64,000 nt of DNA from Candidatus Berkelbacteria bacterium (GTDB lineage: Bacteria > Patescibacteriota > UBA1384 > DTJR01). Location of the stretch: positions 24,555-88,554 of the forward strand of contig JAOUGE010000002.1 in NCBI GenBank assembly GCA_029865605.1, given 5' to 3'. The translations under genes and the position numbers were made by a program. Positions within the stretch are counted from its first letter, which is position 1, and each line of letters starts with the position of its first letter. The notes beneath the pieces were generated by a model. The model was not told where the DNA came from, did not search any database, and worked only from the letters and a program-made list of their open reading frames with translations. Below are positions 6,817-51,449 of the stretch, one piece after another.

Positions 6817-7896
6817 ATGGCGAGAAAAACGAAAATTGAGGGGAGAAAACTGAAAACTGATACAAGCATAAGTTCAGGCAAGAAGCGCGCCCTTGAGGCG
6901 GCAATTTCTGTCATTGAAAAGCAGTTTGGCGCCGGAGCGATCATGAAAATGGGCCAAACTAAGAGTATGAATGTCGGGGTTATTCCAACCGGCTCGCTTT
7001 CTTTGGATTTGGCTCTTGGTGTGGGTGGCGTACCGCGTGGTCGGATAATTGAGATTTTTGGTCCCGAAGCGTCAGGCAAAACCACTCTTGCTTTATCGAT
7101 TGTTGCCCAAGCTCAGAAAAGCGGAGGGATGTGCGCTTTTGTTGATGCCGAGCACGCTTTTGACCCTGATTATGCCACAAAACTTGGTGTAGACACCGAT
7201 GGTCTGCTTATTTCCCAGCCGGATACCGGCGAGCAGGCGCTGGAGATCACTGAAACTTTAATTCGTTCAAACGCCCTTGATGCAATTGTCATTGATTCGG
7301 TTGCAGCGCTTGTGCCGCGAGCGGAAATTGAAGGAGAGATGGGGGATGCGATGGTCGGGGTTCAGGCAAGATTGATGAGCCAGGCTCTGCGCAAGATCAC
7401 CGGTACTGTTTCGAAATCAAAAACGGCAGTTATCTTTATTAACCAGATTAGAATGAAGATCGGGGTTATGTTTGGCAATCCGGAAACGACAACCGGCGGA
7501 ATGGCGCTTAAGTTTTACTCGTCGGTTCGGCTTGACACCAGGCGGGTTGAGCAAATCAAGCGCGCCGATGAGGTGATCGGCAATCGAATCAGGGTCAAAG
7601 TAGTCAAAAACAAAGTTGCTCCGCCTTTCAGGATGGCCGAATTTGAGCTAATGTACTCGACGGGTCTCTCGCAATCTGGGGAGGCCATCGATCTCGGGAT
7701 GAAATACGGGCTTGTTTTGAAAGCTGGAGCCTGGCTGACTTTGGCTGAGCCCAAAAAGCTGGGTGCGGAAACGGATAAGCTGGGCCAGGGTAGAGAATCC
7801 GCCAGGGGCTATCTCGATAAGAACCCGAAATTATTGGAGAAACTGGTTGATGAAATCAAAGCTCGCTTTCAAGAGGAATCAAAAGAAGATTCTTAA
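6817..7896 (+). CDS. recA: recombinase RecA
   Basis: GPEASGKTT Walker A, the canonical RecA core and C-terminal tail. The ATG at 6817 (MARKTK...) follows a GGGAGG Shine-Dalgarno, and the listed 6799 start is an upstream TTG. Confidence 0.95.
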
Positions 7897-35524: not shown

Positions 35525-36763
35525 ATGTCTTCAGTCTGTTTTTATTTTCAAGTTCATCAACCACATCGGGTTAAGAAATATACTGTTTTTGATGTTGGGA
35601 GCGACAGGGATTATTTCAAAGATAGTCATAATGAGCGGCTTGATAACAAAAAGATTTTAGAGAAAGTTGCCAGGAAAGCTTATCTGCCTACGACCGCCCT
35701 GCTTTACGAGCTACTTAAAAAACATCCTGAGTTTAAAATTAGCTTTTCGATTTCAGGGACGCTTCTGGAGCAGCTTGAGGAGCATCTGCCTGAAGTAATT
35801 GATTCGTTCAAACGCCTGGTGGCAACCGGGCGAGTCGAGCTTTTAAATGAAACTTACTATCATTCTCTCGCCTTTATCCACTCTAAGGATGAATTTCGCC
35901 GACAAGTTGAGCATCACCAGAGGAAAATAGATTCTGTATTTGCTGTTAAACCAAAAGTTTTTCGCAATACCGAGCTAATTTATTGTAATGATCTCTCGCA
36001 AGAGATAGCAAAAATGGGTTATTCGGGGATGCTTCTTGAGGGAGCTGACCATGTTTTAGGCTGGCGGAGTCCCAATTATATCTATTCGGCTAAGGATAAT
36101 CCTAATCTTAAGTTGCTTCTTCGAAACTATAAGCTTTCCGATGATATTGCTTTTCGGTTTTCAAACCGTCATTGGGAGGAATTTCCGCTTAACTCGAGTA
36201 AATTTGCCGATTGGGTGTCGCAGGTCAATGGAACCGGCGAGGTAGTTAATCTTTTTATGGATTTTGAGACATTTGGCGAGCACCATTGGGAAGATACAGG
36301 AATTTTTGAATTTTTAAGGACCTTGCCTCGCGAGCTTTTAAAACATCCTGATAACGACTTTGTCACACCAAGTGAGGCAATTGAGCGCTATGAGCATAGA
36401 GGGGAGCTCGATGTTCCCGATTTTACTTCTTGGGCCGATATTGAAAGAGATCTTTCTGCTTGGCTTTCCAATCCAATGCAGGCTGATGCGATGAAGAAGC
36501 TTTATGGTCTGGAAAAGAAGATTCTTTTAAGTGGCGATGAGAGGTTAATTGAAGATTGGCGGCGTCTGCAGACTTCGGATCACTTCTATTATATGTGCAC
36601 GAAGTGGTTTGCCGACGGCGATGTCCACAAATATTTTAATCCTTATGAAACTCCCTATGAAGCCTTCATCAACTATATGAATGTGATAGCCGATCTGAAA
36701 TTAAGACTTAAAGAAAGTTCTGCTTTGAGAACTCGCAGAAAAACTAAGCTAAGTCCTAAATAG
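35525..36763 (+). CDS. GH57-family glycoside hydrolase (alpha-amylase / glucanotransferase-like)
   Basis: N-terminal FQVHQPHR, FSISGTLLEQL and ELLNETYYHSLAF resemble the conserved GH57 regions. Confidence 0.5.
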   Translation: MSSVCFYFQVHQPHRVKKYTVFDVGSDRDYFKDSHNERLDNKKILEKVARKAYLPTTALLYELLKKHPEFKISFSISGTLLEQLEEHLPEVIDSFKRLVATGRVELLNETYYHSLAFIHSKDEFRRQVEHHQRKIDSVFAVKPKVFRNTELIYCNDLSQEIAKMGYSGMLLEGADHVLGWRSPNYIYSAKDNPNLKLLLRNYKLSDDIAFRFSNRHWEEFPLNSSKFADWVSQVNGTGEVVNLFMDFETFGEHHWEDTGIFEFLRTLPRELLKHPDNDFVTPSEAIERYEHRGELDVPDFTSWADIERDLSAWLSNPMQADAMKKLYGLEKKILLSGDERLIEDWRRLQTSDHFYYMCTKWFADGDVHKYFNPYETPYEAFINYMNVIADLKLRLKESSALRTRRKTKLSPK

Positions 36764-37415
36764 CTTTTACGAGGTCGGCTTCGACGATTAATCTTCTCCA
36801 GCTGGTTCCGATTGGAACGCAGGTCATAAGGTGAAGGACTTTCGGATTTTGTCCTCCGAAATTAATATTTATCCCGTCGTTGCCTGCGACCTGGTAGATC
36901 TTTTTAACCTTGTAGAAGTAAGTGACGTCTTTTCTTCGGATCGTGATGTCGTCGCCCTCCTTGGCTCTGATAAGCGGAGCAAAGACGCTTTTGTAGCTCC
37001 CCTTGCTCCACCAGTAATAGGAACTGTGTCCAGCGATTAGAACATCGCCGTTGGCGTCGGGGGTTGCTGTGCCATCGAGGTGAATAAGGCTGTCAGGCAT
37101 AAGCCGGTGGACATTGGATTTAAGAACGTTCCACTCAACTGGAGCCTTAATATTCAAGGCCGGATAATAAAGCCAATCGTTTTTGAACTGCTTGGCTAGC
37201 TCTGATCGAAGTTGGGCGAGCTGGTCTACCTGCGGTTTGTACGATATTGAAGTTGCTTTGTCTATTGCTTGAGACGTTGATTCCTCCGCTGAAACGGGGT
37301 TGAACTTAGCTTTGAAGAGCTTTAAGAGTGTTGGAGCATTTAGGGCAATATAAGCTCCGTAGCTTACCAACGCTAAAGCAATGATCGACTTTAAGATTTT
37401 AATCGTGACTTTCAT
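36756..37415 (-). CDS. sortase (cysteine transpeptidase)
   Basis: N-terminal TM, LIAGHSSYYW (His), LHLMTCVPIGTSWRR (the TLxTC-type Cys, and an Arg). The ATG at 37415 (MKVTIK) avoids overlap with the upstream gene. Confidence 0.7.
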   Translation of the reverse strand: MKVTIKILKSIIALALVSYGAYIALNAPTLLKLFKAKFNPVSAEESTSQAIDKATSISYKPQVDQLAQLRSELAKQFKNDWLYYPALNIKAPVEWNVLKSNVHRLMPDSLIHLDGTATPDANGDVLIAGHSSYYWWSKGSYKSVFAPLIRAKEGDDITIRRKDVTYFYKVKKIYQVAGNDGININFGGQNPKVLHLMTCVPIGTSWRRLIVEADLVKAI

Positions 37416-37425
37416 CTGGTAGCGA

Positions 37426-38406
37426 TTAGGATTTGGCGATTCGGTAAACGATAAACCCACCAATTGTAGCGACTAGAACGATAAGAACTATGAACGAGGG
37501 GCCTGATTTGATGCCCGAAACAAGCAAGTTACCGTCTGGCGAAGCGAAGATATTCGCCGTTGTAACTTGAGTCCCTGTGGCAGTCGGCGTTTCTTCAGGT
37601 TCTAAGGATTCGGTTGGTGAAACGGTCGGTGTTGAAGTTAGCTCTGGAATTATTGGTGTTCCGCTGTCGCCGGGTCCGGGTGGAACTGGCGGTGTTCCGC
37701 TGTCGCCGGGTTCGGGTGGAACTGGCGGTGTTCCGCTTTCGCCTGGGCCGGGAGGAACCGGCGGTGCTCCGACCGAGCCCGTAGCTGTAACTATAGCGGA
37801 GGGCGTAACGGTCGCGACTGCTGTAACCCTTCCCCAAACCCCGAGATTGAGCAATTGGGGGGATTGGTTGGAATTATCCGCGATTAGGGTGATTTTATAT
37901 TTTATATATTTGTATTTTCTTGTGCCCAGTCTTGAAGCAAGTTCGACCGTGTCGGTTCGGTTGGAGCTATAGGTAGGGCTCCATGTTTTTCCGTCTCTTG
38001 AAACGTTTACTTCTAGGTTTATCCGCGACGCGTTAGGATAGGGCCTTCTCACGCCAATCTTCACTTTAGTAAGAAGGGAGAGCTGGCTTAAATCGGCCCT
38101 TCCTTCAATCGTTCCTCTTTCTCTTTGTGAAGATAGCACGATCTTGTCGCCGGAGCGGACGACACCAGTTAAAGTATCCTGAGCAAAATGACCCTTTGAA
38201 ACCCTTTTAAATTTTAAAACCCGTTCCTGGGCCGAAACATCGGCTAAGATTTCGATACCTTTGCTCAAGAGGTAGGATCTTAGTAAGAAGAGTCCGGCTA
38301 CGGCCAGGGCCGTAAGCACAATCGTAATAATTATCTTAGTAACTTTCGAGCCCGCTTTGCCTGGGTCGGGCTTTATTCTATCTGCCATTTCCCCTCCATT
38401 CCCCAC
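37426..38406 (-). CDS. surface protein with Pro-rich repeats, an N-terminal signal anchor, and a C-terminal hydrophobic segment plus basic tail (RIAKS)
   Basis: Repeats GTPPVPP(G/E)PG(D/E)S x3. The C-terminus reads ...SGIKSGPSFIVLIVLVATIGGFIVYRIAKS*. It ends 10 nt upstream of the sortase gene. Confidence 0.55.
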   Translation of the reverse strand: MGNGGEMADRIKPDPGKAGSKVTKIIITIVLTALAVAGLFLLRSYLLSKGIEILADVSAQERVLKFKRVSKGHFAQDTLTGVVRSGDKIVLSSQRERGTIEGRADLSQLSLLTKVKIGVRRPYPNASRINLEVNVSRDGKTWSPTYSSNRTDTVELASRLGTRKYKYIKYKITLIADNSNQSPQLLNLGVWGRVTAVATVTPSAIVTATGSVGAPPVPPGPGESGTPPVPPEPGDSGTPPVPPGPGDSGTPIIPELTSTPTVSPTESLEPEETPTATGTQVTTANIFASPDGNLLVSGIKSGPSFIVLIVLVATIGGFIVYRIAKS

Positions 38407-38488: not shown

Positions 38489-38503
38489 TGTCAAAATTTG
38501 ACA
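38489..38503. promoter_or_regulatory. perfect inverted repeat TGTCAAA-A-TTTGACA in a divergent intergenic region (operator-like)
   Basis: 7-bp arms with a 1-nt centre. It overlaps a TTGACA -35-like hexamer (38498-38503) oriented toward the riboswitch. Confidence 0.3.
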
Positions 38504-38544
38504 TATCTTGTTTGTTTTGAAATATTACGAATTGGTTCATTAAA

Positions 38545-38762
38545 AACTAAACCACATGTGCAGCCCCGCCTATGGTGGGGTGGGAAGTGAGGTTGGATTC
38601 CTCCACAGTCCCGCTACTGTAATCCTTTGAGCTTGCCCCGAGGCTTGCGCGAAGGGAGTCAGAAAACCAATATGTGGTAAAACCGCAGTCCGCCTCTTGG
38701 CGGAGGTGGTGCCTCGGTCGAGGGCAAGGTCAAACATGGCTTTGCGCCATGTTTTTGTTATT
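38545..38762 (+). promoter_or_regulatory. cobalamin (B12) riboswitch-like leader with an intrinsic terminator
   Basis: GGGAAGTGAGGTTGGATTCCTCCACAGTCCCGCTACTGTAATCC matches the cobalamin-element core (GGAA..GGUG.AA.UCC...C.G.CCCGC.ACUGU.A). GGGAGTCAGAAAACC resembles the B12 box. Terminator stem AAACATGGC/GCCATGTTT plus a T-run at 38733-38760. Confidence 0.65.
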
Positions 38763-38779
38763 AAAACAAAAGGAGACAC

Positions 38780-39151
38780 ATGAGGATAAAAAATAGTGTT
38801 ATATATAAAGTTATATTGATTTTAGTGTTAGGGGTAGGGATTTTGGGGCTTGCTGGTTGCGCAAGGAAAACGGAAACAAGCAGTGTAGAGCAGTCTAGTG
38901 TTGCTCAGGAGAAGACAATTGAGTATCAGGGGGAGGACGGCAAGACAGTTTGTGACCTCTTGCAGGCAAAATATCAAGTTGAAGCAAGCGAAGGTTCGAT
39001 GGGTATGCTAGTTAATTCAATTAATGGACTTAAAGCAACTGACAAGGAGTTCTGGCTCTATTCGGTTAATGATAAGCCTGGTGAAGTCGCCTGCGATAAG
39101 CAAGAAACAAAAACCGGCGATAAAGTTCTCTGGGAGTATAAAGGGTTTTAG
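38780..39151 (+). CDS. small lipoprotein, DUF4430-like (candidate B12-binding protein)
   Basis: Lipobox LGLAGC. The C-terminal pattern ...FWLYSVNDKPGEVACDKQETKTGDKVLWEYKGF resembles the W.Y.VNg......DGD.v.W.Y signature. Sits directly behind the riboswitch with an AAAGGAG Shine-Dalgarno. Confidence 0.5.
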   Translation: MRIKNSVIYKVILILVLGVGILGLAGCARKTETSSVEQSSVAQEKTIEYQGEDGKTVCDLLQAKYQVEASEGSMGMLVNSINGLKATDKEFWLYSVNDKPGEVACDKQETKTGDKVLWEYKGF

Positions 39152-39152
39152 G

Positions 39153-40511
39153 TTACTTAAATAAATACGACCAAATCGTATAAAAGCTCAGCAGGCCGAA
39201 GAAAAGCCAGATAAGAAAAATAATCACTTTGCGAAGGGTGCTTGTCTCAATTTGATGAGGCAGGGCTTTTCGGTTTAGAAGATAGGTTGCTCCTATGTGA
39301 ACAAACATCGCCACGGCGTTAATTACAGCGCTGGTGATGACCAGGGTGAACGGGTCGGAATAGCCCGAGAGGAAAACGATTATTCCAGCGATTATCTGGA
39401 GCCATAAAATCGTGTAATAAACCTTGGAGAGATTTGCCTCTGTTTTTAAAATAACGAAGTTCTCGCTCATAATTCTTGAAGTTGAATCGAGCACTGTAAA
39501 CTGGGTTGCAAAAAGCATTACCGCTGCGATGAGGATGAAGAGAACCCCCAAAGTACTCCCGAGTATTCCGCCAAGGATTTTTGACTCGTAAAGGATAAAA
39601 TCTATCCCCTGGCTAGTGTCGGACCCGCTGGTTGTTGAATAGGCAATTAAGGCAAGCAAGATTATTGTAAAGGCTCCGGCTAGAAGAAAAACTAAGCCGT
39701 GCTCTATATTGACCGCTTTCCACCAGAGCCGGAAGTTGCTGATGTTTTGATCAGTTAGGCTAAATCTTTCGCCCTTAAGCGATATTTTCTCGCTTTTTCT
39801 GGTCAGGACGCTGGTGATGCCTTTTGCGCCGGCGCACATGCCGTAGCCCTTTTCTTTAATATAGAGAGATTGGGCTAAATTGAGATTACCGCCGGCACCG
39901 GCGTAAGCTAATGCTCCTAGAAAGGTTAGAAGCGGCAAGTCTTTGGGGATAAAAATGAAACCATCGCCAACACCCATGAGGCCAAGCCCCAGAGCTCTAA
40001 GGTCTGATTTTGTCGCTATAAGGCAGGCAATAATAAAAAGCAAGGGAATTCCTACCGATACAATCACTTTTTGAAAGGTTTCAACTGTCTTGTAGAGGCG
40101 AGGACCAAGGGTTAGGATGGCACCGATTAAAAGAAGAAAAATGATTGCCAGGTACTCAAAGTGGGCAATGCCGAAAACCTGGGCGAAAAGTTTGGCGCTT
40201 GATGCAATAATTCCTGGCCAAATCCAAGCAATAAATGTTGAAAATATGAACCAATAGGGCGCCAGGCGGAAATATCGAGAAAAGCCGATAAAGATGCTTT
40301 CGCCCCAGGCCAAGCTGTAGCGCTCAATCTCCATGTTCATAAAAAATTGGGCGGTGATGCCCAAAACTGCTGCCCAAATGATACCAAGGCCGAACTTTGA
40401 AGTTAAGTATGGCCAGAGGATTATTTCGCCCGACCCGAGCCCAAGCCCAAGCAAAATTATGCTTGGCCCGATAAGATACTTAAGCCGAGGGGCCTTTGAG
40501 AGATTTGCCAT
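39153..40511 (-). CDS. NRAMP-related membrane transporter (variant motif GSGE in place of DPGN)
   Basis: About 11 TM helices. GPSIILLGLGLGSGEIILWPYL...GLGIIWAAVLGITAQFFMNMEIERYSLAWG is laid out like NRAMP TM1-TM2. Confidence 0.45.
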   Translation of the reverse strand: MANLSKAPRLKYLIGPSIILLGLGLGSGEIILWPYLTSKFGLGIIWAAVLGITAQFFMNMEIERYSLAWGESIFIGFSRYFRLAPYWFIFSTFIAWIWPGIIASSAKLFAQVFGIAHFEYLAIIFLLLIGAILTLGPRLYKTVETFQKVIVSVGIPLLFIIACLIATKSDLRALGLGLMGVGDGFIFIPKDLPLLTFLGALAYAGAGGNLNLAQSLYIKEKGYGMCAGAKGITSVLTRKSEKISLKGERFSLTDQNISNFRLWWKAVNIEHGLVFLLAGAFTIILLALIAYSTTSGSDTSQGIDFILYESKILGGILGSTLGVLFILIAAVMLFATQFTVLDSTSRIMSENFVILKTEANLSKVYYTILWLQIIAGIIVFLSGYSDPFTLVITSAVINAVAMFVHIGATYLLNRKALPHQIETSTLRKVIIFLIWLFFGLLSFYTIWSYLFK

Positions 40512-40559: not shown

Positions 40560-41099
40560 ATGAAAAGAAAACTTAGAATTGCCCTGATAATTATTTTGGT
40601 TGCAGCTCTGGCAGCAGCTGTGGTGTTGTATTTGATTAGCAGGGGGCAAAAAGAATGCGACAGCTGTAACTCGCTCGAGGGAGTTCAGATTAACAGTAGT
40701 ACAGCTTCTGCCGTTAGCACGCCTATAGCATCGGTCAGTAAAAGCTCTTCTCCCCAAACTAGTTCGTTGGTTTATGAAAATAGTATTTACAAATTCAAGA
40801 TTACTTTGAGTGAAGTTTGGAAGGACTACTCCGTAGAGAAGGCTACGGCCCCCTCTGATCAATCGGCTGAAATCCAACTCGACTTTGTTCTGCCGAGCAG
40901 TTCGGGACGAGCTGTACCACTTTCGATTTTGGTCTATCCGATTGATAAAGTAAGTGAAAAACTTACTGGCTCAGTTGAAATTAAACGAAACAGCCAGTAT
41001 GTTTTTGGCTATAAAACCTGGTCGGCAGCGCCTTCGGATCTTCAGCAAGTCACGGAAAAAGAAATCGCCGATCGGCTAGAAACTTTTGTAACATATTAG
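40560..41099 (+). CDS. membrane-anchored extracytoplasmic protein, unknown function
   Basis: N-terminal TM (IALIIILVAALAAAVVLYLI) and an S-rich linker. Confidence 0.35.
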   Translation: MKRKLRIALIIILVAALAAAVVLYLISRGQKECDSCNSLEGVQINSSTASAVSTPIASVSKSSSPQTSSLVYENSIYKFKITLSEVWKDYSVEKATAPSDQSAEIQLDFVLPSSSGRAVPLSILVYPIDKVSEKLTGSVEIKRNSQYVFGYKTWSAAPSDLQQVTEKEIADRLETFVTY

Positions 41100-41171: not shown

Positions 41172-41336
41172 ATGTCTAAGACCGCATTAAAAATAGTATC
41201 GATATTGCTTATTTTAATGGGGATCGCAGCAATGAGACCGGAAAGTTTTTGGAGCTGTTCGGCTGATTGGTACGCCGTCGCCAAAATCATCGTTGGCGTT
41301 ATCGCCTTTGCCATTGCTTTTTCGGATAAGAAATAA
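41172..41336 (+). CDS. small membrane protein (54 aa), absent from the ORF track because it is under 60 aa
   Basis: ATG at 41172 four nt after an AAAGGAG Shine-Dalgarno. Two hydrophobic segments. Stop at 41334-36. Confidence 0.35.
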   Translation: MSKTALKIVSILLILMGIAAMRPESFWSCSADWYAVAKIIVGVIAFAIAFSDKK

Positions 41337-46300: not shown

Positions 46301-47998
46301 TTATATTACACTTTTCTGATAGCAATCTTCGCAGTAAACTTTCTCTGGTCTATCCGGTGCATAGGTCGTTTCAAATTCGTTTTTGCAACCTTGGTTCATA
46401 CATTTTCTATGCCAGAGTTTACGGGGGTTGCGTAAGGCAAAACGTTCTTTGTATCTAATATTATAGTGTTTGGTTGGAATAGGTATTTTATTTTTAAGAT
46501 AATATGCTAACTCTTGCGGCATAATTTTAAATGGTTTATTTGATATCTCACACTTTAGTATCCCAGCAAGCAGTTTTTCTCTTTCATTTTCATTTTCGAT
46601 GTATTCATCAATATCATCTTTTGGCTCATAAAATGGTCCGTTGTACTTAATGCCATAATCTTTATCCTGCCACTTAGCATCAAGCTTTAGAGCCCCCTCT
46701 TTTTCAAGAGGAAAGTAGTCCATAGCCACTGTCTCGTTATAGCCAAAGGGACTTATTGAAACAGGGAAAAACTCTCCCCATTCGCCGTCTTTTTGCATTT
46801 TCTCAATTATCTGACCCGTTAACTTCTCATATTCTTGTTTAGAGTATTGTTTATTTAAAATGCAATATTGTTTATGGCGAAGACCGACACAGCCGAAGCA
46901 ACGCGAACAATATTCGCAGTGATTACAATACAGGTTGTTGTCTCCGTATGTAGCCCAAGTGCAAAACAAGTGCTTGTATCCAGCAATGCTTTCTCCCTCA
47001 TAACAGAGCTGCATTTCAGCAGATATATTTAAATCCTGGCAATCTTTTGCATCGCTATCGATATTATAAATTTTTTTGCAACCCTCGCACTTATAAGAAT
47101 TATATGAATCCTTGCAGTTTTTGCATTCGACTAAATAATCACCAGTGCATCCCTCTGATTTCTTATTGTTGTCGGATTTTCTAATGACACCTAGTTTGAT
47201 CCTTTTAAGTTCATTTATCAGGTTCCTTTGGATAGAACGGCTGGACAGATTTATTTTTTTAAATTCTTCAAAATATTTTTCTTTTGTATACTTTTTGTTT
47301 TTGATGTAGTACTGCTTGTTTCGTAGGTTCGTGCATAGCAAGACATTGTTGCACCCCTTGCAATCGTACGAGAAATGGGATTCAGTGCAGTTCTCACAAT
47401 GCTCCAAAAAGGTGGATGAATTACACTTGTCACAGTCAGTACAAAAGTAGCAATTCTCGCAATTCCTAACATAGAAGCAGTCTACGCAATCTTTCACCCT
47501 AAGAATTTCATTCGAGTAATAGCAGCTTTCGGCATATCCAGCGATAAAACACAAATAAGAATCCTTTAGGTGCCAAACTTCTTGGCAATATTCGCAGTTT
47601 TCGACAATTGTGGAGAGGGTTGCGAGTTTTGGAACTTGTCTGAATAAACTTTCGAATTGGGAGAAAAAATCTCGTTTTGAATCAAAATCGCAGCCATATT
47701 TTAGCGGATCCCAGTCGTCTTTCCATATTTCAATATTTTTCCAGACTTTGTATGGTTTGTCCGGAGAGTAGATGCTAATAATATTTTCTTGCGTTTTATC
47801 ACACTTTCGTTTGTATAGATTGGTAGATGCTTCCCAAACCATTCGCCTTTGGTCTCTACATTTTGGACACAGTGTCGGCGGAGGAATTTCGTAGGTTTTA
47901 CCCGCAAAAGTAGGGGAGATTTTTTTATAGAACTCTAAATCCTCGTCCTCAACGACGAATTTCTGATCGCACTGTTTACAGGTCTTATTCATACTCAT
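46301..47998 (-). CDS. cysteine-rich protein, paralogue 1 of 3 (unrecognised family)
   Basis: 565 aa. N-terminal CKQCDQKF...LCPKCR, dense CxxC runs, and a C-terminal ...FETTYAPDRPEKVYCEDCYQKSVI. Its ATG overlaps the upstream stop (ATGA). Confidence 0.7.
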   Translation of the reverse strand: MSMNKTCKQCDQKFVVEDEDLEFYKKISPTFAGKTYEIPPPTLCPKCRDQRRMVWEASTNLYKRKCDKTQENIISIYSPDKPYKVWKNIEIWKDDWDPLKYGCDFDSKRDFFSQFESLFRQVPKLATLSTIVENCEYCQEVWHLKDSYLCFIAGYAESCYYSNEILRVKDCVDCFYVRNCENCYFCTDCDKCNSSTFLEHCENCTESHFSYDCKGCNNVLLCTNLRNKQYYIKNKKYTKEKYFEEFKKINLSSRSIQRNLINELKRIKLGVIRKSDNNKKSEGCTGDYLVECKNCKDSYNSYKCEGCKKIYNIDSDAKDCQDLNISAEMQLCYEGESIAGYKHLFCTWATYGDNNLYCNHCEYCSRCFGCVGLRHKQYCILNKQYSKQEYEKLTGQIIEKMQKDGEWGEFFPVSISPFGYNETVAMDYFPLEKEGALKLDAKWQDKDYGIKYNGPFYEPKDDIDEYIENENEREKLLAGILKCEISNKPFKIMPQELAYYLKNKIPIPTKHYNIRYKERFALRNPRKLWHRKCMNQGCKNEFETTYAPDRPEKVYCEDCYQKSVI

Positions 47999-49725
47999 AT
48001 AACTGCTTTCTGATAACAGCTCTCGCAATATACTTTCTCTGGTCGGTCGGGGGCGTAGGTGGTTTCAAATTCATTTGGGCAACGACTAGAATGTCCATGC
48101 TCTGTTTCTTCACACATGCACTGGCGGTGATATAAATTCATTTTATTGAACATATCCAGTCGCTCTTTGTATCTTACATCAGGATGTTTTCTCGGTATTT
48201 GGAGTTTATTTTCGATATATTGAGCTAATTCTCGCGGGATTATCTTAAATGGTTTCCCAGAAACTTCGCACTTGATTATACCTTTAATGCATTTTTCTAT
48301 TTCATCATTCGCATCGGGGTTGTATTCTATATCATATTCTTTTATATCCTTCGGCTTATAATAAGGCCCAGCATTTTTTGTGGAGTAATCCTTGTCTTGC
48401 CATTTTAGGTCAAGTCTTTTTGCCTTATCTTTTTTAATTGGAAAGTGCTCGAAAGCGTTTGATTCATTGTAGCAAAATGGTGAGATAGCGGTCGGAAAAA
48501 ATTCTCCCCATTCACCCTGTTTTGACATTTGTTCGATAATTCGGGCAACCTTTATCTTGTATTCCTCCTCGGAATATTGCTTGTTCAAAATACAATATTT
48601 TTTGCGATTTAAACTTACACATCCAAACAAATCATTGCTGTTAGTACAGTTATAACAATAATATGAATTTCTGACTGAATCACAAGAAGTCATAAATGCT
48701 GAATTATATAATTTTGTAGAAGATGCGCCCTCATAAATAAGTTCGCCTCGGCCAATTGAGAGGGCATCCATAATCTCTTTCATACTATCAATCATATAAA
48801 CATAACGAGCGTTCTCGGTTTTGTAACAATAATAACTGTCCTTAACATCCTTGGAATTAAGCATTATATCTCCCGTACAATCACCTTGGCAAGAAATCAC
48901 AGTAACATACTTAAAGGGATATCTGAGTTTATTTTTTTTAGACATTGCTTGAGCTCGCATTACCCCCTCATAGCTATCGGTATATTCTTTAACCCTTTTA
49001 AGATACTCTTCTTTTTTTAGTTCTTCGTTAAAAAAATAGTATTTTTTATAACGCAGGTTTGTTGAGCTAAAACAAGAGTTGCATCCAACGCAGTCATTGC
49101 AGAATAAACAATCATTGCACATATGGCAATTGAACAAATATTGACTATCAAAGCATCCTACAGAGAAGACACTATTATGAACTTTATCTGAATAGCCGAC
49201 ACCAAAACAATCTGTCATGTCATTTCCGTGGATACAGCTATTACAATGGAAACAATTTCTGTTGTCGTTTCCTCCAGTACATAAATAACAATTGCTGCTG
49301 TTCATTTCCTGATTTACAAATTCACTATTTTCACAGTTTGTTGCAAAAAGGGTCAGAAGGTAGGTGCTATGCAATAGGTCATCGAATTGCTCAAAAAAAG
49401 ATCTGTTAATATCATAATTCCGCTCGCTTTCATGCTGGTTCCACTTATCTGACCAAAAACAATCCTTGCATAAAGCCTTTGGTTTTTTGTCGGGAGAATA
49501 CACGGAAATTATCTCTCTTTTGCAGATTGAGCACTCATTTTTATAAAACTTTCTTTCGTTTCGCCAATTCATTCTTCTTATCAATCGACACTCAGGACAC
49601 AGTGTCGGCGGCGGAATTTCAAAAGTCTTGCCGGCAAATGTCGGGGAGATTTTTTTGTAAAAGGCTAGGTCGTCATCTTCAACGACGAACTTTTGGTGGC
49701 ATTGTTTGCAGGTTTTATCAATCAT
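47995..49725 (-). CDS. cysteine-rich protein, paralogue 2 of 3
   Basis: 576 aa with the same architecture. Ends ...FETTYAPDRPEKVYCESCYQKAVI. Its ATG overlaps the upstream stop (ATGA). Confidence 0.7.
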   Translation of the reverse strand: MIDKTCKQCHQKFVVEDDDLAFYKKISPTFAGKTFEIPPPTLCPECRLIRRMNWRNERKFYKNECSICKREIISVYSPDKKPKALCKDCFWSDKWNQHESERNYDINRSFFEQFDDLLHSTYLLTLFATNCENSEFVNQEMNSSNCYLCTGGNDNRNCFHCNSCIHGNDMTDCFGVGYSDKVHNSVFSVGCFDSQYLFNCHMCNDCLFCNDCVGCNSCFSSTNLRYKKYYFFNEELKKEEYLKRVKEYTDSYEGVMRAQAMSKKNKLRYPFKYVTVISCQGDCTGDIMLNSKDVKDSYYCYKTENARYVYMIDSMKEIMDALSIGRGELIYEGASSTKLYNSAFMTSCDSVRNSYYCYNCTNSNDLFGCVSLNRKKYCILNKQYSEEEYKIKVARIIEQMSKQGEWGEFFPTAISPFCYNESNAFEHFPIKKDKAKRLDLKWQDKDYSTKNAGPYYKPKDIKEYDIEYNPDANDEIEKCIKGIIKCEVSGKPFKIIPRELAQYIENKLQIPRKHPDVRYKERLDMFNKMNLYHRQCMCEETEHGHSSRCPNEFETTYAPDRPEKVYCESCYQKAVI

Positions 49726-51449
49726 TTCTCTTCATCCCAATAGCACTTTTCACAATACACTTTTTCTGGTTTTTCAGGAGGATATGAAGTTTCGAATTCC
49801 GTCTTACATCTGCCTTCGTGGTCATGGTCTGTTTCTTCGCAATCGCACTGACGATGGAATAATTTTATATGGTTTATTAAATTGAATCTCTCGGTGAACC
49901 GAGTTTCAAAGTGTTTCTGCGGAATAGGTATCTTATTTCTAATATAAAAATGCAGCTCTTGAGGTGTAATTTTATACGGTCTGCCGCTAACTTTGCACTT
50001 TAAAACTCCGTCTAATAGCTCCTGTCGCAATTTCTCGCTTTTTGCATATTCAACAATTGCTTTCGGCTCGTAGGGCGTGCCGTCAAATTTCAGGGAGAAG
50101 TCGTCATCTTGCCACCCAAATCCAAGTTTCTGTGCCTCTTCCTTACTCAAGGGATAATAATCGTTAGCGATCGTCTCGTTATACCCAAAAGCGCTAACAT
50201 TATTTGAAAACCACTCTCCCCACTCCTCATCTTTCTGCATCCGCCCAATTATTTTCGCAACCGTTGCCTTGTATTCTTCTTCGGAGTATTGCTTGTTTAA
50301 AATGCAGTGTTTTTTATGGTTTTTGACTCCGACGCAACCAAAGAGACTGTCGCAGTAGTAGCAGTGATCACAGTAGAACGAGTTGGATAATTGATAGGCA
50401 AAAGAGATAAACGAACTTCTGGTTGTTCCAAGGCCGATGTTTGTTCCTTGATACAGCAGTTCGCCGGTATTGCCGAAACCGGATACATCATAGGAGTCCT
50501 TGGTCGAAAACATCCCGTAGCAGAATTTGCAGTCCTCGCAATTCGTCATCATAAAACATCTCTGGCAGTTTTTAGAATCGAAAATATCCTCTCCTGAACA
50601 ATTTTCGCTCCGCAGCATTTGGGAGAATTTCTTGGGGCGAGAAATTATTATTTCTCTGAATTCTTTTCTATATTCATCTATCTTTGTCTCAAGTCCGGCT
50701 AAAAATTCTTTTTTTACTTTTTCGTATTCGTCTTTTTCAAGTTGTTGATTTTTATAGCAATATCTTTTTCTGTACAGGCAGCTGCATAGGATGCAGTCAG
50801 CACAACTGTTGCAATCTTCTATAAAATACGAATCTCGACAATTTCCGCAGTTTATCGACCAATTGATGTTATAGCATTTGCCAAGGTTTATTCCTTCGTA
50901 ACAAAGTTCGCTAAATGCGCCGAAGGTGAGATCAACGCACGATTTACAATTATCAACGTAGTAGCCGTAATAGACGCTCTCGTTATTTCCGGCTAAAAAA
51001 AGCAGATAGCAGTCTCTGTTTCCGTCGGCCAAGTTGGTATATTCGGAGTTTTCCGATTTTACATTCATAAGGGCCGCCTTTGGAACAGCGGTCTTTAACT
51101 CAGCGAATTGTTGGAAAAACGGCTTTAAGGGATCGAAGTCGCGCCCGTATTTTAGCGGCTCCCATTTGTCTGACCACCAGCATTGCTGGCAATAAACAGT
51201 TACTTTTTTATCTGGCGAATAGACTGTGATTATGTCTTTCTGGCACAAATCACACTTTCTTTTATAGAGTTTCACCACGTTTCTAAAAGCAAAACGGATC
51301 TGCTGCCGGCAATCTGGGCACAACGTCGGCGCTGGCATCTCGTAGGTCTTACCCGCGAAAGTAGGGGATATTTTTTTGTAAAATATTAAATCGTCGGCGG
51401 TGACGGCGAATTTGGTTTTACATTGTCGGCATTGTTTTTCTAGGGCCAT
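49722..51449 (-). CDS. cysteine-rich protein, paralogue 3 of 3
   Basis: 575 aa. Ends ...FETSYPPEKPEKVYCEKCYWDEEK. Starts 9 nt after the L,D-transpeptidase stop. Confidence 0.7.
   Translation of the reverse strand: MALEKQCRQCKTKFAVTADDLIFYKKISPTFAGKTYEMPAPTLCPDCRQQIRFAFRNVVKLYKRKCDLCQKDIITVYSPDKKVTVYCQQCWWSDKWEPLKYGRDFDPLKPFFQQFAELKTAVPKAALMNVKSENSEYTNLADGNRDCYLLFLAGNNESVYYGYYVDNCKSCVDLTFGAFSELCYEGINLGKCYNINWSINCGNCRDSYFIEDCNSCADCILCSCLYRKRYCYKNQQLEKDEYEKVKKEFLAGLETKIDEYRKEFREIIISRPKKFSQMLRSENCSGEDIFDSKNCQRCFMMTNCEDCKFCYGMFSTKDSYDVSGFGNTGELLYQGTNIGLGTTRSSFISFAYQLSNSFYCDHCYYCDSLFGCVGVKNHKKHCILNKQYSEEEYKATVAKIIGRMQKDEEWGEWFSNNVSAFGYNETIANDYYPLSKEEAQKLGFGWQDDDFSLKFDGTPYEPKAIVEYAKSEKLRQELLDGVLKCKVSGRPYKITPQELHFYIRNKIPIPQKHFETRFTERFNLINHIKLFHRQCDCEETDHDHEGRCKTEFETSYPPEKPEKVYCEKCYWDEEK

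Follow-up and report, generated by a model that had tools for sequence, protein, structure and literature searches.

What does a cobalamin-type leader RNA do in front of a gene for a small DUF4430 protein in a bacterium of the candidate phyla radiation (CPR), and would that protein capture outside the cell the compound that the RNA senses inside it? This question was raised by a stretch of 64,000 nucleotides from Candidatus Berkelbacteria (the window, to whose numbering all positions refer unless a related locus is named), in which a structured leader precedes a monocistronic DUF4430 gene on the forward strand (Table 1). Our preferred reading, to which we assign a probability of roughly three in four, is that the locus constitutes a corrinoid-repressed unit formed by a kissing-loop OFF riboswitch and an exported, tethered corrinoid scavenger. 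What carries this reading is the observed membership of the RNA in a riboswitch family, the domain family and fold of the protein, the conservation and covariation of the aptamer, of a hairpin termed P13 and of the terminator, and the recurrence of DUF4430-family genes beside nrdJ, btuR and DUF6580.

Scanning the whole window with cmscan against Rfam 15 at gathering thresholds produced four matches, comprising three tRNAs and one riboswitch. The latter matched RF00174 (Cobalamin) over the full model (positions 1-189) with 38.9 bits against a gathering score of 31.5 (E = 2.5e-6); the scan reports only the best family of a clan (CL00101), and the window scored for RF00174. The aptamer sits in the sense-strand 5' leader between a promoter-like site and the DUF4430 open reading frame (ORF), with its core GGAAGTGAGGTTGGATTCCTCCACAGTCCCGCTACTGTAATCC at about 38583-38625 and its B12 box AGTCAGAAAACC at 38657-38668, a segment read as AGUCAGAAAACC in the model alignment. 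Together with this box, the segments UGGGAAG and CAGUCCCGCUACUGUAA matched the conserved core (GGGAA junction, GCCACUG-type L5/P6 strand and B12 box) with high posterior probability. The modest score is explained by a short P6 peripheral region (24 nucleotides in the window vs 61 in the model) and by one missing small model hairpin. Judged by its sequence, the leader RNA belongs to RF00174 on every point that can be tested. The predicted transcription start falls just upstream of the aptamer, solely by consensus match of a sigma-70-like promoter that agrees at 10 of 12 positions and carries an extended -10 TG; TTGACA recurs 102-114 nucleotides upstream of the aptamer core in eight related leaders. 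Between the promoter-like site and P1, at approximately the predicted 5' end of the transcript (38527-38550), a further conserved element reads GCAC(A/C)TTAAAAA (in the window, TTCATTAAAAA) and recurs at equivalent positions in the related loci L001, L006, L008, L011, L012, L020, L024 and L025.

The close protein family comprised 20 clusters in 5.8 billion sequences, and the loci that we compared were the genomic places of eight of these clusters plus 20 further metagenome loci. Directly upstream of the gene, a cobalamin-clan match at gathering score was detected in 14 distinct leaders besides the window (L001, L002, L008/L015, L009, L011, L012, L014, L024, L025, L026 with RF01689, L028, L029, L030 and L035), and sub-threshold matches of the same clan were found in five more, of which L005, L020 and L022 have L4 or P6 expanded by insertions, L033 is truncated at the edge of its contig, and L019 has a minimal aptamer without the P6 extension. 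In L006 and L018, the core or the B12 box was seen by eye. Among the loci with adequate upstream sequence, the riboswitch was missing in L007, which is rearranged, and in L031 only; none was seen in L032 within the mere 188 nucleotides available upstream. In an alignment of 11 aptamers, 14 of the 26 predicted pairs were changed on both sides with pairing kept, P1 varied at nearly every pair across the 11 leaders, P2 and P4 varied too, and the helices covary among relatives down to about 50% protein identity. The RF00174 and PF14478 (DUF4430) matches are thus beyond chance, since both exceed curated thresholds, the RNA is repeated before orthologues and the aptamer covaries.

The leader family is also structurally diverse. 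The peripheral P6 extension ranges among orthologous leaders from absent, with matches to RF01689 (AdoCbl-II), to more than 100 nucleotides (L008/L015, L019 and L026 as against L009, L022 and L028), so that the boundary between classes I and II is crossed within a single leader family, and hairpins are inserted into L4 in L006, L020 and L022. In L005 (7503-7880, the orthologous leader of protein P0009), an ORF for an 81-residue GIY-YIG nuclease (7604-7849) lies within the P6 hairpin, flanked by the perfectly complementary 13-nucleotide arms CCCCTCACCCTTC and GAAGGGTGAGGGG; the L5 core precedes this insert and the B12 box follows it. The aptamer score falls to 20 bits with this ORF inside, and the arrangement resembles that expected if a mobile or homing-type element had entered the apical loop of the riboswitch helix. 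Protein P0004 occurs in two contexts: L008 (198-623) combines a minimal aptamer of 109 nucleotides with a structured spacer of about 170 nucleotides, P13 and a terminator, and L007 (5583-5826) keeps spacer, P13 and terminator, its aptamer having been lost through rearrangement or chimeric assembly.

With regard to the ligand, a possible, albeit doubtful, alternative is that the aptamer senses corrinoids with a small upper ligand (methylcobalamin, MeCbl, or hydroxocobalamin, HOCbl) or is broadly promiscuous, being class-II-like despite its RF00174 match. The P6 extension of the window is indeed only a short hairpin, a large multi-helix one being the mark of class I (AdoCbl-selective) switches, orthologous leaders without the extension match RF01689 (41.2 bits in L026, 31 bits in L019), and one report describes cobalamin riboswitches as broadly corrinoid-sensitive (PMC9600662). 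However, the best-scoring clan member for the window is RF00174 and not RF01689, selectivity is not reliably readable from sequence, and the enzymes linked to the gene in relatives (NrdJ and BtuR, described below) concern adenosylcobalamin (AdoCbl), which makes AdoCbl the logical signal.

Downstream of the aptamer, about 12 leaders including that of the window share what we call the type A platform, namely a variable hairpin, a conserved hairpin YCUYC-GGUC-GAR(R)RG with a bulged purine (P13), and then a terminator. At the position of the first hairpin, most related leaders have a hairpin of unrelated sequence, which is absent in L001. P13 exhibited strong conservation of pairing, with 93.9% of cells paired in type A vs 33-53% in slid controls, three of its six pairs changed on both sides (G-C to C-G, C-G to U-A) and a covariation score reached by none of 500 shuffles. 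A hairpin followed by a run of at least four U was present in 10 of 11 type A leaders, the stem sequences being unrelated; in the window, the run directly after the hairpin, up to 38762, reads TTTTTGTTATT. The 5' strand of a predicted antiterminator overlaps the last three bases of the P13 3' strand, and its 3' strand consists of the terminator 5' strand and loop, so that antiterminator and terminator are mutually exclusive; the antiterminator is more stable than P13 (Table 1). In constrained folding, forcing P13 gave a terminator probability of 0.92-1.00 in all 11 leaders (1.00 in the window), and when the P13 5' strand was blocked, the P13 3' strand or loop invaded the terminator, the probability of which dropped to at most 0.33 in 10 of the 11 leaders (0.03 in the window). 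The unconstrained fold of the window leader yielded a terminator probability of 0.52, which suggests that its platform is a balanced switch. The original prediction had placed a cobalamin core and a B12 box in this leader, anticipated an RF00174 hit, and proposed an intrinsic terminator before the Shine-Dalgarno sequence AAAGGAG in a standard OFF-switch layout. Core and box proved to be present at or within a few bases of the positions given, the match exceeded the gathering score, the terminator and its U-run precede the Shine-Dalgarno sequence as described, and the OFF layout holds up in silico, with a terminator conserved in form, a covarying P13 and an antiterminator that excludes the terminator. 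Two other arrangements were considered and rejected. If the P1 3' strand paired with the 5' strand of the terminator to form an antiterminator, the helix would comprise only 4-5 base pairs, and it is not conserved in L014, the P13-linked antiterminator being preferred; a leader peptide starting at the ATGs in the terminator stem was set aside because these arise from a palindromic CATG within that stem and L021 and L024 lack them.

How would ligand binding reach P13? In a second group of leaders with a type B platform (L002, L005, L006, L009, L018, L019, L022 and L026), L5 varies together with a downstream partner (UCCCG/CG(A)GG, UCCGG/CC(UA)GG and UCAGG/CC(G)UG), which amounts to two independent double compensations with four pairs preserved. 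This covariation provides good evidence that the riboswitch lineage uses a kissing loop between L5 and L13. In the window leader itself, the kissing loop is presumed from the type B covariation and by analogy with the Priestia megaterium metE corrinoid riboswitch, in which mutation and compensation showed that C-C-G of L5 kisses C-G-G of L13 (Kennedy et al. 2023, PMC10327014). There, P13 carries an unpaired element that deliberately weakens it and gains stability from the kissing loop, the P13 3' side forms an antiterminator with the terminator 5' side, and the published L5 consensus is UCCCG (PMC10327014). The window leader, in silico only, resembles this system in its transcriptional OFF layout, its CCG in L5 and CGG in L13, its L5 sequence UCCCG and a P13 weaker than the antiterminator. 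It differs from metE in its very short P13 (6 base pairs, a GGUC loop and a single bulged purine), which overlaps the antiterminator by only about 3 nucleotides, in a separate variable hairpin before P13, in a minimal P6 extension and in an uptake-type gene instead of metE. As a separate observation on type B, in L002 (7905-7960) the L5 partner CG(A)GG forms the 5' portion of a strong Shine-Dalgarno sequence (CCCGAGGAGG), and type B leaders have an AUG at conserved spacing that opens a mini-ORF of 2-4 codons ending 6-18 nucleotides before the terminator. This suggests a riboswitch-controlled translation of the mini-ORF, whose ribosome would mask the terminator, and the upstream ORFs of Mycobacterium tuberculosis offer a comparison (PMC11260477).

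The platform also bears on an alternative that we consider unlikely, in which ligand-dependent refolding controls chiefly translation, or translation as well as transcription, by occluding the Shine-Dalgarno sequence or the AUG as in Escherichia coli btuB and env8HyCbl, the hairpin and U-run being incidental or reinforcing. Such a mode would agree with the unconstrained minimum-free-energy fold of the full leader, which pairs the U-run UUUUUGUU with AACAAAAG, abutting the Shine-Dalgarno sequence, and the P1 5' strand with CACAUG at the start codon. These pairings are nevertheless A-U rich or rely on the self-complementary CAUG, and they are not conserved. Kissing-loop control of a hairpin at the ribosome-binding site is the better-studied mode (PMC10327014), and L006 and L019 have no obvious terminator; against this stand the stable hairpin and U-run kept in the type A leaders despite their unrelated stems, and the location of the Shine-Dalgarno sequence 7 nucleotides past the U-run in no conserved helix. 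An AAGGAG-type Shine-Dalgarno sequence precedes the start codon in all related leaders.

Turning to the protein, the encoded polypeptide matched PF14478 with 56 bits against a cut-off of 23.8 (E = 5.4e-15), residues 54-121 covering profile positions 1-71 of 72. Its basic N-terminus MRIKNSVIYK is followed by a signal or anchor helix (residues 4-21), a lipobox LAGC (L24-A25-G26-C27, recognised by pattern match only), a flexible linker at about 28-44 and a beta-grasp domain (45-123). An AlphaFold model built from a 19-sequence family alignment reached a predicted local distance difference test score (pLDDT) above 90 for residues 45-123, preceded by the N-terminal helix and the disordered linker. 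In this model, the helix 57-64 is directly followed by a beta-hairpin with strands 67-72 and 75-81; an insert of this kind at this point of the fold defines the transcobalamin-like clade within the SLBB superfamily (PMC1796856). Consistently, the top 19 Foldseek matches in the PDB were all either 3u7z or beta-domains of transcobalamin (TC), intrinsic factor (IF) or haptocorrin (HC), at probability 1.00 and with root-mean-square deviations of 1.3-1.7 A over about 76 residues at about 21% identity; the next matches had probabilities of at most 0.25. At the sequence level, a single-sequence phmmer search against the PDB returned spurious matches only, and a narrow family profile found 3u7z only (E = 0.08). 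A broad profile of 82 members ranked 3u7z (E = 0.008), haptocorrin (E = 0.17) and the TC beta-domain (E = 0.24) as its top three, the TC and HC matches being marginal, and aligned the invariant Trp92 of the family with the (F/Y)W of TC and HC. The family profile matched 3,516 representatives of 50% identity clusters at E <= 0.001 and 804 at E <= 1e-10; most top matches are stand-alone proteins of 115-180 residues, which indicates that this architecture is common.

The toroidal alpha6/alpha6 alpha-domain (Pfam Cobalamin_bind) is absent, residues 1-44 being anchor and disordered linker without a second Pfam domain, and the DUF4430 protein is accordingly a relative of the TC beta-domain only and not a transcobalamin. 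Even without the alpha-domain, the isolated human TC beta-domain binds cyanocobalamin (CNCbl) and cobinamide, and so tightly that extensive washing was needed (PMC5599065), and secreted bacterial TC-like SLBB proteins, whose hosts usually have no B12 biosynthesis, were predicted in 2007 to scavenge B12 or its precursors (Burroughs et al., PMC1796856). Taken together, the modelled fold, the profile matches, this literature and the linkage to nrdJ, btuR and cobalamin riboswitches support the prediction that DUF4430 binds corrinoids. Both proposals that had been made for the gene from its letters, a DUF4430-like lipoprotein of 123 residues and a corrinoid-binding family, were therefore strengthened, the former by the PF14478 match and the lipobox and the latter, still at the level of sequence and model, by the evidence just listed. 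Within the family, C58 and C105 co-occur in a window-like subgroup (P0002-P0006 and L014-L016) and are replaced together in all other members, by Tyr/Phe and by Ala; a disulfide particular to this lineage is probable.

The gene neighborhoods of more distant relatives with stand-alone DUF4430 genes point in the same direction. In L031, the order is nrdJ - DUF4430 - DUF6580 without a riboswitch, the DUF6580 start overlapping the DUF4430 stop, and the nrdJ product matches TIGR02504 with 580 bits against a cut-off of 400. L030 has nrdJ - riboswitch - DUF4430 - DUF6580, L029 and L027 have DUF4430 - DUF6580, L035/36 has btuR - riboswitch (41.4 bits) - DUF4430 - DUF6580, and L037 and L038 have nrdJ - btuR - DUF4430, with an extra 285-residue ORF between nrdJ and btuR in L038. 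Neighboring btuR genes occur in L035/36, L037 and L038/39. The repeated linkage to BtuR, which makes AdoCbl, to NrdJ, which uses it, and to a small membrane protein indicates that DUF4430 belongs to corrinoid salvage.

On this basis, the unit would operate as follows. A promoter at about 38498-38526 would drive the leader, the first approximately 145 nucleotides of which would fold into the cobalamin aptamer. Once intracellular corrinoid is bound, L5 would kiss L13 and thereby stabilise the weak, bulged P13, occupying its 3' strand; with P13 held, the antiterminator would be blocked, the terminator would form and transcription would end before the gene. Without ligand, the stronger antiterminator would beat P13, and RNA polymerase would read through so that the gene is expressed. 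After export, the product would stay attached to the cytoplasmic membrane on its outer face, held by a lipid on Cys27 and a flexible linker of about 18 residues, and there its single TC-beta-like beta-grasp domain would capture external corrinoids and pass them to a membrane transporter encoded elsewhere. The net effect would be a B12 scavenger made only when B12 is scarce.

Several points weigh against this reading. On the RNA side, the constrained folding took account of thermodynamics only, neither co-transcriptional kinetics nor tertiary contacts being considered; several relatives lean towards the terminator even when folded without constraint, and the overlap between P13 and antiterminator is only 3 nucleotides in the window. 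L5 and L13 are invariant across the type A leaders including the window, and the presumed kissing loop there is supported by three complementary bases and by analogy. On the protein side, the lipobox Cys is missing in about half of the close orthologues, which are apparently anchored by an uncleaved helix; tethering is thus conserved, its mode is not. The alpha-domain gives TC its sub-picomolar affinity, and the lone beta-domain lacks it. A literature search found no paper on measured corrinoid binding by a bacterial DUF4430 protein, and 3u7z, the closest solved bacterial relative, was annotated by its depositors as 'putative metal binding protein'. As for the organism, Pfam scans and tblastn found no NrdJ, MetH, BtuR, BtuFCD/ECF (energy-coupling factor) or DUF6580 in the window or in 8 kb further left, a region with housekeeping genes only, and tblastn with the BtuR, DUF6580 and NrdJ sequences of L031, L035, L037 and L038 gave no match in the window or in L034 (best E 0.44). 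The window locus has no adjacent adenosyltransferase, B12-dependent ribonucleotide reductase or DUF6580, and hence lies outside the B12 salvage cluster nrdJ - btuR - DUF4430 - DUF6580 of the relatives. Linkage in relatives does not show that the window organism has those partners, and the lack of a B12 enzyme, adenosyltransferase or candidate transporter in the searched region leaves its B12 need and uptake route unproven.

The annotation of 3u7z leads to an alternative that we regard as quite improbable, namely that the ligand of the protein is a metal (e.g., cobalt) or some other small molecule, or that its role at the surface is structural, its place in the B12 regulon having an indirect cause. 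Cobalamin riboswitches also control cobalt transporters, and two genes for Nramp-type divalent-metal transporters flank the locus; however, the Nramp_1-like gene is on the opposite strand and missing at the locus in L008 and L011, linkage in the relatives is with nrdJ and btuR, cobalt or B12-biosynthesis genes not being among their partners, and a CPR genome unable to make B12 would presumably gain little from riboswitch-controlled cobalt uptake. SLBB domains as a whole bind diverse ligands (PMC1796856), yet the fold match is specific to cobalamin-binding beta-domains including the clade-defining beta-hairpin insert, and the invariant Trp aligns with their (F/Y)W. That the riboswitch is a decaying relic, the gene being constitutively terminated or constitutively expressed, is scarcely credible: the score is just 7 bits above gathering, L007 has lost the aptamer and L005 carries an ORF in it, but the conserved cores (GGGAA, L5 context and B12 box) are intact, P1 is a perfect helix, the helices covary across distant relatives, and the low score is accounted for by the short P6 and the missing hairpin.

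Returning to the scavenger reading, its missing piece is the transporter, for which DUF6580 (PF20221) is a candidate as a corrinoid transporter; its gene lies directly after DUF4430 in five of the loci in Table 1, and searches for it returned nothing in the literature, among NCBIfam names or among sequence relatives in the PDB. Tentatively, the tethered DUF4430 protein could act as a 'half-transcobalamin', a receptor passing corrinoid to the six-helix-sized DUF6580 as a new class of B12 transporter that would supply BtuR and NrdJ; this would be an undescribed uptake route of CPR and other monoderms, and in the window lineage the receptor gene would have become separated from the rest, encoded elsewhere. 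We hold this extension to be speculative.

Table 1. Positions of the features discussed (window numbering unless a related locus is named).
Feature	Position	Strand	Remarks
Sigma-70-like promoter	38498-38526	+	TTGACA 38498-38503, 17-nt spacer with TG, AATATT 38521-38526
Cobalamin riboswitch aptamer	38542-38686	+	RF00174 match
P1	38551-38559 with 38670-38678	+	ACCACAUGU with AUAUGUGGU; perfect 9-bp helix
P2	38564-38580	+	model alignment
P4/L4	38589-38603	+	model alignment
L5	38609-38613	+	UCCCG; model alignment
P6 with short hairpin extension	38624-38655	+	32-nt hairpin
Variable spacer hairpin	38690-38703	+	CCGCC-UCUU-GGCGG; between P1 and P13
P13 hairpin	38710-38726	+	UGCCUC-GGUC-GAG(G)GCA, bulged purine; -4.9 kcal/mol
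L13	38715-38720	+	CGGUCG; CGG complementary to CCG of L5; presumed kissing-loop partner
Antiterminator (predicted)	38724-38745	+	GCAAGGUCA-AACA-UGGCUUUGC; -9.9 kcal/mol
Intrinsic terminator	38732-38754, U-run to 38762	+	stem AAACAUGGC/GCCAUGUUU, 9 bp, -11.2 kcal/mol; U-run UUUUUGUUAUU
Shine-Dalgarno sequence	38769-38775	+	AAAGGAG; 4 nt before ATG 38780
DUF4430 lipoprotein gene	38780-39151	+	123 aa, predicted lipoprotein
Nramp_1-type gene	39153-40511	-	NF037982 match, 305 bits; no Pfam Nramp match
DUF6580 (PF20221) genes	L031 3246-3806; L029 3316-3708; L030 3465-3860; L027 565-1005; L035 1360-1917		directly after DUF4430, often overlapping
Sortase gene overlapped by surface-protein gene	36756-38406	-	surface protein of 326 aa
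Three tandem paralogous ORFs	46301-51449	-	575, 576 and 575 aa; 40-45% mutual identity

Comparison with known systems places the protein among familiar parts. With the beta-domains of TC, IF and HC (PDB 5no0, 5np4, 2bb5, 2pmv and 4kki), it shares the SLBB fold with its beta-hairpin insert and the motifs (F/Y)W and GD/E-x-I/V-x-W/L; unlike them, it is bacterial, membrane-tethered and devoid of the alpha-domain, so that half of the TC binding site is missing. RUMGNA_00854 of Ruminococcus gnavus (3u7z), its best PDB match (Foldseek E 8e-4), is likewise a stand-alone, single-domain DUF4430 protein of similar size, yet a Firmicute protein of about 18% identity, for which the searchable literature contains no published function. 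The riboswitch-controlled, lipid-anchored BtuG/BtuH proteins of Bacteroides, which capture corrinoids outside the cell and feed a transporter, follow the same functional logic. BtuG is nevertheless a beta-propeller with a fold unrelated to DUF4430 and belongs to a diderm system with the TonB-dependent BtuB. The Gram-positive TC-like SLBB proteins also combine a signal peptide and a surface location with predicted scavenging of B12 or its precursors, but they were described mostly as multidomain or as encoded in operons with CbiO/CbiQ-type (ECF) components (PMC1796856), whereas the window gene has no transporter nearby and its relatives have DUF6580 with btuR and nrdJ as partners rather than CbiO/CbiQ.

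CPR bacteria, a lineage not yet known in 2007, have tiny genomes and presumably depend on neighbors for cofactors. Both RNA and protein are ordinary further examples of known parts, the prediction of B12 scavenging by bacterial TC-like domains dating from 2007 (PMC1796856), and our understanding of riboswitches and B12 binders is unchanged, parts and logic having already been described. A literature search found no paper on cobalamin riboswitches controlling DUF4430 or 'transcobalamin-like' genes in CPR bacteria, and NCBI already lists a protein identical over its full length as 'DUF4430 domain-containing protein', from a metagenome-assembled genome of Candidatus Berkelbacteria. Its gene lies on a contig of 97,534 nucleotides (k141_1197078 in ENA ERZ27296335), of which the window covers positions 2370-66369. 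As far as the sequences tell, at least some Berkelbacteria-type CPR bacteria would sense intracellular corrinoids and invest in a surface protein for B12 capture, a pointer to B12 as a traded nutrient that could bear on cultivation attempts. At 123 residues, the protein is about the smallest natural version of the cobalamin-binding module of transcobalamin and would be convenient for biochemistry, and the linkage of DUF4430 to nrdJ, btuR and DUF6580 offers a specific candidate for the missing transporter.

The remaining gene content of the window, as revealed by Pfam scans of its ORFs, fits a monoderm CPR bacterium: it includes a sortase with a Pro-rich surface protein, a glycogen gene cluster, RecA, DnaG, sigma-70, rubrerythrin and two Nramp-type transporters, and many ORFs fall into no Pfam family. 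Among the latter are the three tandem paralogues listed in Table 1, which have Cys-rich N-termini with CxxC motifs (KxCxQCxxKFxV...CPxCR). Past the DUF4430 gene, the next gene encodes the Nramp_1-type transporter and is convergent, with the two stop codons 1 nucleotide apart. The sole plus-strand terminator-like hairpin 3' of DUF4430 (39241-39264) lies inside this gene, so that read-through from DUF4430 would be antisense to it. As a cobalt or corrinoid transport partner, the Nramp_1-like gene was rejected, given its strand, its place outside the riboswitch transcription unit and its absence from the locus in L008 and L011. In these two loci, DUF4430 is directly followed by two genes for small membrane proteins, the window equivalents of which lie at 40560-41099 and 41172-41336. 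On the other side of the leader, the 326-residue surface protein contains GTPPVPPxPGDS repeats, ends in a hydrophobic helix with a basic tail and matches no Pfam domain; its gene and the sortase gene that it overlaps are divergent from the riboswitch promoter and are kept beside DUF4430 in relatives.

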